NCBI GenBank assembly: GCA_963700145.1
Contig: OY969474.1
Span: 480,001-544,000, forward strand
Length of the DNA: 64,000 nt
Source of the DNA: an uncultured Acidobacteriota bacterium
Lineage (GTDB): Bacteria > Acidobacteriota > Thermoanaerobaculia > Multivoradales > UBA5704
Reading direction: 5' to 3'
Below are positions 31,185 to 64,000 of this stretch, in pieces. Every line of letters starts with the position of its first letter. The first letter of the stretch is position 1. A program made the position numbers and the translations under genes. The notes beneath the pieces are model-generated. The model had not been told where the DNA came from. It made no database searches and saw only the letters and a list, made by a program, of their open reading frames with translations.

Positions 31185-31217
31185 GTCACCATCGAGCGCA
31201 CGCTCTTGGCCAGGTAA

Positions 31218-32423
31218 ATGCTCCCTGCTCCTGATCGCAGCACCGGCGTGCGCCTCGCCGGCTGGGCGCGGGAGCTGGACACGATGGCGCTGCGTGAGAT
31301 CCTCGAGCTGACCGCGCGGCCCGGCATCCTCTCGCTCGCTCTGGGGCTTCCCGACCCAGACCTTTTCCCGGCCGCAGCCCTCGCCAGGGCAGGCGAGCGG
31401 CTCCTCACCTCCGATCCGCGCTGTCTGCAGCTCGGAATCCCCTTCGCACCGCTCAAGCGCCAGGTGGTGGCGCTGATGGCCAAGCGCGGCGTCGTCTGCC
31501 GCGAGGACCAGGTGCTGCTCACTGCGGGGGCGCAGCAGGGGTTGTCGCTCGTGACACGGCTGCTGCTGGAGCCGGGGAGCCGGGTCCTCCTCGAGGAGGT
31601 GAGCTACACCGGACTCCACCAGATGTTACGGCCGTTCCCGGCCGTCCCGATCACCGTTCCCACCGGCCTCGACGGCGGCATGGACATCGAGGCCGTCGAG
31701 GCCGCGCTCGCGCGTGGCCGTCCCGCCTTCGTGTACGTGATGGCGGTGGCACACAACCCACTCGGGATCGACCTGCCGGCCGGACCCCGCGAGCAGCTCG
31801 TGGACCTCGCACGCCGCTACGAAGTACCGATCGTCGAGGACGACCCCTACGGGTTCCTGTGGTACGACGCGGCTCCCACGCCCCCGCTGCGCGCCTTGGA
31901 CGGCGACTGGGTGCTCTACCTCGGCACCTTCTCCAAGATCCTCGCGCCGGCGCTGCGGGTGGGCTGGGCGGTGCTTCCCGAGGCGCTGGTTCCCAAGCTG
32001 GCGCTGGTCAAGGACATGACCGATATCGACTGTGCCACCTTCGCGCAGCGGGTCGTCTCGGAGTTCGTCACTGCCGGCGACCTGGAGGCGCATATTCCTG
32101 TCCTCCGCCAGGCCTACGCGCTCCGCCGCGACGTGCTACTCGCCGCACTCGCTCGCCACATGCCGGAAGGCACTCGGTGGTCTCGCCCGAGCAGCGGCAT
32201 GTTCGTATGGGTCGAGCTGCCGGGGGGAATCGACACCTCCGCGCTCTTGCGCCAGGCGATCGAGAACGAGCGGGTGGCGTTCGTGCCCGGAGCCGCTTTC
32301 TCGCTGGATGGCCATGCCGGCCGGCACGCCCTACGTCTCAACTTTTCCAACCGCGGCATCGCCGATATCGAGGAGGGCGTGGAGCGGCTCGGCAGGGCGG
32401 TGCGTGCGGCGATCGCCGGCTAG
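31218..32423 (+). CDS. PLP-dependent class I/II aminotransferase (LysN/ARO8-like)
   Basis: TAGAQQGL, HNPLG, EDDPY, GTFSKILAPALRVGW, LRLNFS. Confidence 0.9.
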   Translation: MLPAPDRSTGVRLAGWARELDTMALREILELTARPGILSLALGLPDPDLFPAAALARAGERLLTSDPRCLQLGIPFAPLKRQVVALMAKRGVVCREDQVLLTAGAQQGLSLVTRLLLEPGSRVLLEEVSYTGLHQMLRPFPAVPITVPTGLDGGMDIEAVEAALARGRPAFVYVMAVAHNPLGIDLPAGPREQLVDLARRYEVPIVEDDPYGFLWYDAAPTPPLRALDGDWVLYLGTFSKILAPALRVGWAVLPEALVPKLALVKDMTDIDCATFAQRVVSEFVTAGDLEAHIPVLRQAYALRRDVLLAALARHMPEGTRWSRPSSGMFVWVELPGGIDTSALLRQAIENERVAFVPGAAFSLDGHAGRHALRLNFSNRGIADIEEGVERLGRAVRAAIAG

Positions 32424-32453
32424 AGACGGCTCGCTACCGAATGAAAGGATCGT

Positions 32454-61252: not shown

Positions 61253-63999
61253 TGTTCGTACCCCTTTACCAGCTTTTGGACCTCCTGGTCCGAGAGTCCT
61301 TGGACCTGCTCCAGCAAGCGGGCGACGGCTTCGGTCCGCTGGCTGCGCCGGACCCGAAAGGTGTCGACCGCCTCCGCCAGCTTGGCTACGCTGGGGGCCG
61401 CGAAGAAGCGGCGGAGCGGGACCGTTGCGAAGAAGAGCGATCGCAGGCGGTTGAGAACGCGCGTGGCCAGTAGGGAGTGGCCGCCGAGCTCGAAGAAGTC
61501 GTCGTGTACCCCGATGCCCCGGATCCCGAGAAGCTCCTCCCAAACCGCGGCGATCCTCGCCTCGGTGTCGGTGCGGGGAGCGACATGCGGCGTTTGAGAG
61601 CTCCTCGCCAAGGATGGATTGACGGGTGGCAGGGCGCGGCGGTCCACCTTGCCCGTGGAGGTCAGCGGTAGGTTCTCGAGCAGCAGGAAGAGCTGCGGCA
61701 CCATGTACGCCGGTACCCGCTCCTCCAGAAACAGCCGCAGCTCGGACATCTCCACCGCGGCCCTGGGCTCGACCCAGGCCGCCAGCCGTTGATCTCCGTC
61801 TCCGGCGTCGACCGCGACCAGCGCGCAGCGGCCCACGGCGGGGTGGGCGGACAGCACGGCCTCGATCTCCTCGATCTCGACGCGCCTGCCGCGCAGCTTG
61901 ATCTGGAGGTCGCGGCGCCCCACGAGCTCGAGGGCGCCGTCCGGCAGCCACCGTCCGACGTCGCCCGTTCGGTATGCCCGACGAGCGGTAGCGCCCGGTA
62001 GCGGCCCTGGCACGAAGGACGCGGCCGTTTCGGCGGGTCGCAGGAGGTAACCGTCGGCGACGCATGCGCCCTCGAGGTACACCTCACCGCGCACGCCCGC
62101 GGGACAGATCTCGCCTTCGGCATCGAGCACCAGCACTCGGCACCCGTCGATCGGCCGGCCCGCCGGCACCGTGCGGCGGCCGGCGTCGACCTCGGTGACG
62201 TGCTGGCAGCTGGCGACGAGGGCCTCGGTCGGACCGTAGAGATTGTAGAGCCGCGGCCGGGCGGGGAACCTGGCGAGGAGGGTGCCGGCGAGGGCCGCCG
62301 GCAGCGGCTCGCCCGCCAGCAGCAGGTGCTCGAGATCGGGCAGTCGACCACCGTCCTCGCTCTCCACGTCGAGAGCGGCGGCGAGCTGCGCGACGAAGCT
62401 GGGAATCGCCTGCAGCAGCGAGATCCGCTCCTGCCGCAGCCAGCCCAACGCCGCCACCGGATCGGCGCTCGTCCCGTCCGGCGGCAGGCAGAGCGTGGCG
62501 CCGCCGCACAGCGCCGAGAAGATCTCCGCCAGGGCGGGGTCGAAGACGATGGGAGTCCATTGGGCGATGCGGCACGGCGCCGCCACCTCGAAGGTGCGCT
62601 GGAACCAGCGCAGAAAGGCGCCGAAGCTGCGATGGGACTGGACGATGCCCTTGGGCCGGCCGGTGGAGCCCGAGGTGTAGGCGATGTATGCGGGAGCTTC
62701 GACCGGGACGTCCAGCGCCGGCGGGCTCGCCGCGTAGCCGCCGAGCAGCCCGGCGCCGCGGGCGCCGGGTCCCAGCCGCTCCCGCGCCTCGTCGACGTCC
62801 AGGGCCAGGAGCGGAGCGGTGCAGGCTGCGGTGAGCGCTGCCAGCTCGCCGGCGGCGAGAGAGGTCTCCACCAGCAGGGCGCCGGGCTTGATCTCGTCGA
62901 GCATCGCCGCCAGACGGGCGGGCGGATGGGCCGTGTCGAGACAGACGAAGCACCCTCCCGCCTTGAGCGCCGCCAGCAGCGCCTGAATGCGCAGCGGTCC
63001 GCTCGCCGCCGCCACGGCGACCGGCTGCGCGGGGCGGAGGCGCAGCCGCAGCAGCAGATGATGGGCCAGGCGGTTGGCGCGCTCCTCGAGCTCGCCGTAG
63101 GTCCATACGCCGCCGTCGAACGCCAGGGCGGGCGCCGCCGGGCGCTCCCGCGCCCGGGCTTCGAAGAGCCGATGGACCGGCGGGGTGGAGGGGGCTGCGA
63201 CCGGCGGCCGGCCCCACTCGACGACGATCTGATCGCGCTCCGGCGGAGTCATCAGCGGCAGGGTCGCCACCCGACGATCCGGCGCGCTCGTCGCGCCCTC
63301 GAGCAGCGTGCGGAAGTGCCCCTGGAGCCGCTGCATGGTGGTGCTCTGGAAGAGGTCCTCGTTGTAGACCAGCCCCCCCTCGACACCGCGCCCGGTCTCC
63401 CAGAGCGAGAGCGCGAGATCGAACGTCGCGCGGCCGCTCTCCACCGCCAGCGGGGAGAAGCGCACTCCGGCGCACTCTCGCAGCTCCTGCGGCGCGTTCT
63501 GGAGCTGCATCATCACGGAGCTCAACGGCTGACGACTGAGGTCGCGCTCGGGCTGCAGCTCTTCGACGAGCTTCTCGAACGGCAGGTCCTGGTGCTCCAG
63601 GCTGTCGGCGAGGAGGGTGCGGACGCGGCCCAGCAGCTCGGCGAACGTGGGGCCGCCGGTGAGATCGACCCGCAGCACCAGGGAGTTGACGAACATGCCG
63701 ATCAGCCCCTCGATCTCGGTGCGGTTGCGGTTGGCGATCGGGCAGATCACCAGGATGTCGTCTTGGCCCGAGTAGCGGTGGAGCAGCGCCGTGAACCCGG
63801 CGAGCAGCGTCGCGAAGAGCGTGGCGCCGTGCCGCTTGGAGAGCGCCGCCAGCGCCGCGGCGAGCTCGTTCCCCAGCAGGACGGGCCGGCGACCGCCACG
63901 GAACGTCTGGGCCAGTGGGCGGGACCGATCGGTCGGCAGATCGAGCAGCGGCAGCGGGCCCGCCAGCCGTGTCTTCCACCAGTCGAGCTCCCTGGCCAG
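61249..63999 (-). CDS. NRPS, partial (5' end outside window): C-A(beta-amino acid, likely beta-Tyr)-T
   Basis: Open to the edge; YTSGSTG, FDPALAE, LLQAIPS, shortened YGPTEALVAS loop, GGHS carrier. Confidence 0.92.
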   Translation of the reverse strand: MARELDWWKTRLAGPLPLLDLPTDRSRPLAQTFRGGRRPVLLGNELAAALAALSKRHGATLFATLLAGFTALLHRYSGQDDILVICPIANRNRTEIEGLIGMFVNSLVLRVDLTGGPTFAELLGRVRTLLADSLEHQDLPFEKLVEELQPERDLSRQPLSSVMMQLQNAPQELRECAGVRFSPLAVESGRATFDLALSLWETGRGVEGGLVYNEDLFQSTTMQRLQGHFRTLLEGATSAPDRRVATLPLMTPPERDQIVVEWGRPPVAAPSTPPVHRLFEARARERPAAPALAFDGGVWTYGELEERANRLAHHLLLRLRLRPAQPVAVAAASGPLRIQALLAALKAGGCFVCLDTAHPPARLAAMLDEIKPGALLVETSLAAGELAALTAACTAPLLALDVDEARERLGPGARGAGLLGGYAASPPALDVPVEAPAYIAYTSGSTGRPKGIVQSHRSFGAFLRWFQRTFEVAAPCRIAQWTPIVFDPALAEIFSALCGGATLCLPPDGTSADPVAALGWLRQERISLLQAIPSFVAQLAAALDVESEDGGRLPDLEHLLLAGEPLPAALAGTLLARFPARPRLYNLYGPTEALVASCQHVTEVDAGRRTVPAGRPIDGCRVLVLDAEGEICPAGVRGEVYLEGACVADGYLLRPAETAASFVPGPLPGATARRAYRTGDVGRWLPDGALELVGRRDLQIKLRGRRVEIEEIEAVLSAHPAVGRCALVAVDAGDGDQRLAAWVEPRAAVEMSELRLFLEERVPAYMVPQLFLLLENLPLTSTGKVDRRALPPVNPSLARSSQTPHVAPRTDTEARIAAVWEELLGIRGIGVHDDFFELGGHSLLATRVLNRLRSLFFATVPLRRFFAAPSVAKLAEAVDTFRVRRSQRTEAVARLLEQVQGLSDQEVQKLVKGYEQ

Positions 64000-64000
64000 G

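Follow-up and report, generated by a model that had tools for sequence, protein, structure and literature searches.

A ten-gene hybrid NRPS-PKS operon with two MIO enzymes in an uncultured Acidobacteriota bacterium

What would be made by a hybrid nonribosomal peptide synthetase-polyketide synthase (NRPS-PKS) locus of an uncultured Acidobacteriota bacterium (GenBank assembly GCA_963700145.1), and does it match a pathway already known? The stretch analysed, here called the window, comprises 64,000 nucleotides (contig OY969474.1, positions 480,001 to 544,000), and the original prediction, drawn from its letters, placed a pathway for a beta-tyrosine/diamino-acid peptide at 31185-64000. The host genome, probably of the Thermoanaerobaculia, is a single contig of 5.46 Mb (~71% G+C), in which the pathway genes form a minus-strand operon of ten genes and ~48 kb at genome positions 514972-562822, equivalent to window positions 34972-82822. 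Of the span first predicted, 34972-64000 belongs to this operon, whereas 31185-34971 holds an aminotransferase-like gene and an ADOP-family permease gene on the plus strand. The window contains the downstream 29 kb of the operon (~60%) and 18.8 kb more lie beyond its end. Retrieval of the upstream modules, which had been proposed as a check, added four genes (A, B, X and C) and the rest of gene D. With good confidence, we explain the locus best as a translationally coupled hybrid NRPS-PKS operon for the colinear assembly of a beta-tyrosine/diamino-acid peptide. Its predicted product is larger and odder than the one first described, that description having covered the downstream 60% only.

Extent, conservation and integrity of the operon

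Domains were called with Pfam on whole open reading frames (ORFs) and on 50 overlapping 520-aa pieces, and individual E-values reached 1e-75 to 1e-110, which excludes chance as their source. Upstream of the window lie gene A (genome 557594 to ~562822; minus strand, as are all that follow), with adenylation (A), thiolation (T) and condensation (C) domains in the order A-T-C-A-T; gene B (genome 555339-557594), a ketosynthase (KS), a linker and an acyl carrier protein (ACP) without an acyltransferase (AT) core; enzyme X (genome 553808-555319, window-equivalent 73808-75319, 9.8 kb past the window end), a 504-aa second enzyme of the 4-methylideneimidazol-5-one (MIO) family resembling histidine ammonia-lyase (HAL); and gene C (genome 544692-553805, outside the window), C-A(MT)-T-C-A(MT)-T, where MT is a methyltransferase insert. 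Gene D (C-A-T; window 61252-64000 and on to 64692, genome 544692) has its C-terminal ~916 aa in the window. There it is followed by an MIO tyrosine 2,3-aminomutase (TAM) gene (59639-61252); gene E (46967-59626, 4220 aa), assigned from Pfam matches, motifs and codes as C-A-T-KS-AT-ACP-Aminotran_3-C-A-T-E, the third-class aminotransferase domain being abbreviated AMT below and E denoting epimerization; gene F (43697-46957, 1087 aa), C-A-T; gene G (36270-43697, 2476 aa), C-A-T-E-C-(AMP-binding_C remnant)-T-TE with a terminal thioesterase (TE, motif GFSFG); and, as the final gene, a presumed exporter of the MFS family (34972-36297; PF07690/PF05977, TIGR00900 below its cut-off). The Pfam scans thus bear out the gene and domain order read from the sequence by the original prediction.

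The coupling of the genes that had been noted is likewise borne out. In the window, D/TAM and F/G overlap in GTGA and, provided that translation starts at the TTG codon, G/MFS in TTGA; the gaps are 9 nt (TAM/E) and 6 nt (E/F). Outside it, overlapping junctions are found at A/B (ATGA), X/C (TGATG) and C/D (ATGA).

All reading frames are open across the operon. HHxxxDG is present in all nine C domains, both E domains carry HHxxxD and the SW signature, and the carrier-domain serine is present throughout, with GGDSI on both carriers that precede E domains. Eight of the nine elongation modules have a complete canonical C-A-T set (HHxxxDG C, full A, GGxS T). The exception is the terminal module of gene G: the order C-A-T-E-C-T-TE predicted for this gene stands, except that its last module retains an AMP-binding_C remnant (G residues ~2013-2082) while the A core is absent, and is better written C-Asub-T-TE. 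The syringomycin-type C-T-TE terminus likewise has a last module without an A core whose carrier is loaded by another A domain; it differs from the present operon, in which there is no free-standing A-T or transferase gene and the A C-terminal subdomain is kept as a remnant. Cys-His-His is intact in the KS domains of both gene E and gene B. Gene B departs from the cis-AT PKS architecture in that its AT core is wholly deleted, with both flanking linkers retained. The interrupted A-MT architecture of gene C is itself well formed, with residues 18-926 of a 1000-residue query aligning in one stretch to the TioS A-MT structure 5wmm. Disabling lesions outside the window had been named as grounds for abandoning the prediction; the upstream frames are open and the checked catalytic motifs intact.

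An orthologous operon was found in a second Acidobacteriota genome, an uncultured metagenome-assembled genome (MAG; L017/G201; L099, L100), where it is split over two contigs with the break at the duplicated gene C modules. There, all 27 query domains recur with their order unchanged (57-88% identity), and neither the AT-less KS nor the A-less last module is an exception. The gene B KS is 81% identical, the Asub-T segment 80% and the truncated layout of gene G 80-83%, and the MFS gene is syntenic at 75%. Ratios of dN/dS (Nei-Gojobori) were 0.23 for TAM, 0.15 for X, 0.34 for F and 0.37 for MFS; the operon is conserved under purifying selection. The DNA of the two gene C modules shows 92.9% identity across 4.3 kb, and this suggests either gene conversion or the duplication of a module in tandem.

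This conservation bears on a reading in which the operon is decaying or silent, the missing gene B AT and last-module A core being lesions. Both modules are indeed incomplete by textbook standards, an IS110 transposase lies ~2.7 kb upstream of gene A, and no RNA run is listed, which is not evidence on expression. However, both supposed defects are kept in the orthologous operon, the frames are open with every checked motif intact, including Cys-His-His of the gene B KS, and dN/dS lies between 0.15 and 0.37. We therefore consider decay very improbable.

Modules for beta-tyrosine and a diamino acid

The original prediction included an MIO aminomutase supplying beta-tyrosine, and the enzyme encoded at 59639-61252 (538 aa from a GTG start, 529 aa from the ATG at 61225; Lyase_aromatic PF00221, E 1.6e-159) fits that description. 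It scores 516.5 bits on the tyrosine aminomutase model TIGR03832, above the cut-off of 501, and 474.8 on the hutH model, below the cut-off of 539.15. Among solved structures it is closest to SgcC4 (2rjr/2ohy, 1e-123), with HALs (270-305 bits) and AdmH well below. Alignments with 2rjr and with the family show that it keeps the MIO-forming ASG triad, the catalytic Tyr (Tyr63 in SgTAM) and the His/Tyr pair that holds the phenol (His93 and Tyr415 in SgTAM). A Chondromyces crocatus protein bearing the name tyrosine 2,3-aminomutase is 61% identical to it, and a Swiss-Prot entry so named from Myxococcus fulvus 64%.

Context adds to this assignment. Among 18 loci from other genomes with a TAM relative of 54-86% identity, a single A-domain family lies directly beside the TAM gene in 10, upstream of it in nine of these; of the eight loci without that A domain, two (L022 and L025) begin within or just before TAM and so lack the upstream side. 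The codes of these adjacent A domains are DAAQLALLA, DPAQLALVA, DPVQLTVLV, DADTLALLA and DACQLTLLA. Gene D, whose specificity residues were read from a MAFFT alignment as were all others here, has the code DPAQLALVA and belongs to the same family, and for this reason we take gene D as the beta-tyrosine module and its A domain as the presumed beta-tyrosine activator. The TAM itself, lying between elongation modules and beside an A domain of the family that accompanies TAM genes, is predicted from this context to act as a mutase and yield beta-tyrosine.

The arrangement has precedents. In the chondramide pathway (C. crocatus CmdD NRPS/CmdF), and with the M. fulvus TAM, an MIO TAM encoded with an NRPS likewise supplies beta-tyrosine to an elongation module. 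The cmd cluster consists of a PKS front end and three NRPS modules and is not known to include an AMT domain or another MIO enzyme; the present operon is colinear with none of the loci compared. The logic of C-1027 SgcC4/SgcC1 is the same in that a TAM is paired with a dedicated A domain. Here, however, the A domain lies inside a multimodular line, whereas in C-1027 free-standing enzymes serve an enediyne tailoring branch. Three further loci (L020 from a Myxococcaceae MAG, L021 and L026 from Acidobacteriota MAGs) share the layout AMT - C - A(Tyr-like code) - ... - C - A(DPVQLTVLV) - TAM - C - A - (E - TE) and form a second family of TAM + AMT clusters.

The diamino acid would come from the first half of gene E. 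The code of module 1, DLFNNALTY, corresponds to the textbook Ala code. The PKS module that follows (53243-56239, KS-AT-ACP) has the make-up of a cis-AT type I module, with Cys-His-His in the KS (active-site Cys, HGTGT, NVGH), the AT motifs GHSVG and HAFH, the signature of a malonyl-type AT, and the ACP serine in GADSL; it has no ketoreductase domain. The AMT (51623-52717, PF00202, E residues 2304-2668) matches the solved MycA aminotransferase domain 6kfm over its full length (E 1.2e-132) with the TYGK lysine kept. In class (III), pyridoxal-phosphate lysine and position, directly after KS-AT-ACP and before a C domain, it conforms to the MycA type. The embedded MycA-type AMT and the unit Ala + malonate (+NH2) of the original prediction are thus both recovered. 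The AMT is expected to turn the ACP-bound beta-keto group into a beta-amine, and the expected unit is 4-(acylamino)-3-aminopentanoyl, a 3,4-diamino acid. The placement of the AMT after the ACP, with a C domain next, is that of MycA of the mycosubtilin/iturin type (KS-ACP-AMT, then C-A-T). In MycA, the AMT works on the fatty-acyl substrate with which the line begins, and ring closure is through the amine. Here, in contrast, the module is mid-chain and would extend an NRPS-bound alanyl-peptide to give a vicinal 3,4-diamino acid.

A second MIO enzyme coupled to NRPS genes

The genome encodes three MIO paralogues: the TAM, a canonical HutH (1344449-1345936, 696.5 bits on the hutH model) and X. On the hutH equivalog TIGR01225, X scores 535.1, below the cut-off of 539.15; it passes the HAL subfamily model NF006871 (557.5 against 524), and its best solved relatives are HALs, at 348 bits. 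X resembles canonical HutH in these relatives and in its ASG triad, S-H and EDH motifs; it differs in falling below the equivalog cut-off, in forming a clade of its own with a distinct set of residues, and in being encoded in NRPS operons and not in a hut context.

The clade is represented by the best 120 database matches (64-90% identity), which are mostly unnamed or called 'histidine ammonia-lyase' and come from Acidobacteriota, Chloroflexota, myxobacteria and one actinomycete, and these were compared with ten canonical HutH proteins of the same class. ASG, S-H and EDH are retained throughout. Six motif changes specific to the clade are each present in 101-120 of the 120 representatives, among them TGFG-SLC (101/120), NGVQY where HutH has NGTQA (113/120), LQEDH (109/120) and DNPLFF (120/120), and a Tyr stands at the position of SgTAM Tyr415; the pocket of X is accordingly remodelled relative to that of HutH. 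In a 40-sequence tree, all 23 X-type rows fall beyond one branch with an SH-aLRT of 100, at a point where, the tool warns, long branches meet.

X is translationally coupled with NRPS genes and encoded 250 kb from hutU. An NRPS context recurs elsewhere. Relatives with 53-73% identity to X occur in 42 metagenome loci; a flank of 1.5 kb or more is available on one side in 32 of them, and in 24 of these 32 a same-strand NRPS/PKS domain lies within 1.5 kb of the X homologue; two loci (L116 and L117) look like one sequence found twice, which lowers the independent count by one. The adjacent A domain has a code starting D-A/V-C in 16 loci, and in eight the code is exactly DACQLALLA, that of both gene C modules here and in the orthologue; in three more it is DAPH(L/F)ALLV. 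An MT insert like that of gene C is found in several of these A domains. A domains adjacent to X and to TAM belong to one family and differ mainly at position 239, Cys beside X and Ala beside TAM, with Cys also found in one TAM-adjacent domain (L033). In one locus (L112:299-4674), the X homologue lies only ~20-40 nt from both the upstream C and the downstream A domain, and it may be a fused C-MIO-A protein.

Does X then make an amino acid or urocanate? An ordinary HAL could have been recruited for urocanate, an acyl unit that might serve the loading A domain, for example, and the gene C modules would then take ordinary or TAM-derived amino acids. Work on imidacin biosynthesis (PMC11301661) provides the precedent, HAL-made urocanate being loaded there by an A domain as a PKS starter, with the HAL encoded elsewhere. 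The passed subfamily model, the near-miss on the hutH equivalog, the HAL relatives among solved structures and the retained S-H and EDH motifs all agree with a plain HAL. Yet a canonical HutH (696 bits) is already encoded in the genome, and the pocket changes fixed in the X clade are absent from HutH. X-clade genes adjoin C-A-T elongation modules with A domains of the family that accompanies TAM, and urocanate is unfit as the substrate of these modules because elongation modules after ordinary C domains need an amino group. The loading A domain, moreover, keeps Asp235, a residue typical of A domains with amino-acid substrates. Taking both sides together, we regard recruitment of a plain HAL as possible but on the unlikely side.

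Instead, the X clade probably supplies a beta-amino acid, as an aminomutase that arose within the HAL lineage; the residues and gene neighbourhoods described above are what this proposal rests on. Its substrate is possibly histidine, since HAL residues are kept and two additional tyrosines narrow the pocket. The near-identical pocket of the adjacent A domains is also compatible with beta-Tyr or beta-Phe. More specifically, X and its clade could be an MIO-dependent histidine 2,3-aminomutase of a kind not found so far, a proposal that we hold tentatively and would not call likely. A 2022 review (PMC9002059) reports no obvious genomic evidence for an aminomutase forming beta-histidine. If the proposal held, the product of this cluster would carry two N-methyl-beta-histidines next to beta-tyrosine, and beta-histidine peptides would be widely encoded by the soil NRPS clusters that Acidobacteriota, Chloroflexota and myxobacteria carry. 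More broadly, a HAL-derived MIO clade is embedded in many NRPS operons beside A domains of the beta-amino-acid type.

TAM and X were found together in none of the other 17 TAM loci and none of the 42 X loci within the flanks examined. Since the present cluster keeps both and the other loci show one only, the two enzymes are probably not redundant. Among database relatives, one 36,425-bp contig carries homologues of both.

Predicted assembly line, relatives and surroundings

Read in the presumed direction of chain flow, the line would start with the loading A-T of gene A, which may activate a basic, Lys-like amino acid; its code, DVENVGAVT (DVESVGAVT in the orthologue), resembles the Lys code of the original table. 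The C-A-T of gene A would add Gly. The AT-less KS-ACP of gene B would then add a C2 unit, with either FabD or the AT of gene E loading its ACP in trans, and gene C, through its pair of near-identical C-A(N-MT)-T modules, would add two N-methylated beta-aryl amino acids supplied by X. Gene D would contribute beta-tyrosine from TAM. Next, the C-A-T-KS-AT-ACP-AMT part of gene E would add Ala, extend it with malonate and transaminate the beta-keto group, so that the chain would contain a 3,4-diaminopentanoyl unit whose beta-amine is free. The C-A-T-E that ends gene E would add a small residue according to its Gly-like code, though the module is built for a D-residue. Gene F would add Gly, the C-A-T-E of gene G a D-hydrophobic residue, and the final C-Asub-T-TE a last residue, its carrier being charged either in cis or in trans. 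Chain release would fall to the TE, possibly through lactam formation at the free beta-amine, and the MFS transporter, perhaps with the ADOP permease, would export the product. Substrates other than Ala, the Gly-like residues and beta-Tyr are tentative, as are the mode of release and any bioactivity.

The original prediction had also read Gly - Gly after the diamino acid. Gly-like DILQLG... codes are found in gene A (DILQLGLIW, module 1), E module 2 (DILQLGVIW) and F (DILQLGVVW), and the two codes behind that reading are thus reproduced. E module 2, however, is followed by an E domain (47057-48358, motif HHAVTDD, with a GGDSI carrier domain before it) and then by the C domain of gene F, of the D-residue-accepting (DCL) pattern, which makes a strictly achiral residue at this position doubtful. 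In a tree of C and E domains, the C domains of gene F and of the second gene G module, each of which comes after an E domain, group apart from the other six C domains; they are 35% identical to each other and 25-28% identical to the rest. The E domain of gene E groups with that of gene G.

Several points weigh against the assembly proposed here. The codes of the loading A domain, both gene C modules and G module 1 have no verifiable match, and in E module 2 a Gly-like code is at odds with the E domain of that module and with the DCL-like C domain of gene F. G module 1 has DSGLLGCVL here and DAWFMGCVI in the orthologue; from these differing codes, the two organisms may make congeners. Two modules are incomplete, the KS-ACP without an AT and the last module without an A core, so that a colinear reading needs trans or iterative loading. 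On the supporting side, the genome holds elsewhere a gene of the phosphopantetheinyl transferase (PPTase) family and six other AT matches (seven with the cluster's own). The cluster is patchy in its distribution, since no TAM relative of more than 41% identity was found in 200 other genomes of the same class (including the unpublished G004, G104, G135, G175 and G179, which gave weak rows only); this fits horizontal transfer and leaves little comparative depth. The stretch itself is present only in soil-metagenome DNA runs (four runs from two studies), with no RNA run listed. Finally, a match to a published cluster may exist, the comparison having been made without MIBiG or BiG-FAM.

This last point can be set against what the relatives of the cluster look like. 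If the cluster or a near relative already had a known product, it would appear orphan here only because MIBiG and the subscription literature lay outside the comparison. NRPS clusters containing a TAM are known from myxobacteria and actinomycetes, related TAM + AMT loci occur in a Myxococcaceae MAG (L020), and an X-clade UniProt entry from Phaselicystis flava (P0128) may stem from a deposited cluster. Among the 120 best relatives of gene E, however, close ones are limited to a 99% identical fragment of 2805 aa on a 66.8 kb ENA contig and the 78% identical MAG orthologue. The others bear generic names, with no named or characterised synthetase among them, and reach at most 57% identity, the best over 40% of the query. 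What related TAM loci have in common with the cluster is confined to the TAM pair, joined in three of them by an AMT upstream, and identity there is 33-52%. The full-text literature, subscription papers and supplements apart, yielded no compound tied to this domain combination. A known product thus appears improbable to us, and the lack of a compound match reported in the original prediction persists in this wider, MIBiG-free comparison.

We conclude that this is a real, conserved orphan cluster whose parts (NRPS and cis-AT PKS modules, a TAM, a MycA-type AMT and interrupted A-MT domains) are all of known kinds, their combination and order being unmatched. Hardly any natural products are known from Acidobacteriota. 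The cluster is complete, conserved and located in a closed genome, and could be expressed. Its predicted product would join features that are individually rare: beta-tyrosine, a vicinal diamino acid made mid-chain by an AMT, and two N-methylated beta-aryl amino acids.

Outside the operon, the only gene shared with the MAG is that of the ADOP-family duplicated permease, ~76% identical in the best tblastx segments, so that the cluster lies in different surroundings in the two genomes. In the window, the permease gene (32454-34937, plus strand; TIGR03434 933.5 against a cut-off of 622) is convergent with the MFS gene, and it is possibly a cluster member acting in export or self-protection. A class I/II-like aminotransferase gene (31218-32423, plus strand) ends 31 nt upstream of the permease gene and shows weak MocR-type and MppQ-type likeness; it was rejected as a cluster member, being absent from beside the cluster in the MAG and with its best NCBIfam matches far below cut-off. 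A scan of the flanks in both genomes found no free-standing A domain, regulator or PPTase upstream of gene A. The IS110-family transposase ORF on that side occupies genome positions 565549-568614 and, together with the non-syntenic flanks, hints at mobility of the cluster. On the other side, plus-strand housekeeping genes at window 26934-28466 and 29026-30477, with a peptide deformylase domain and a cysteinyl-tRNA synthetase, mark the downstream limit of the cluster. A 4885-aa open frame ~25 kb ahead of the window carries another AT domain (genome 455111-455953), and from five more AT matches elsewhere it follows that the genome contains several more PKS/NRPS loci.

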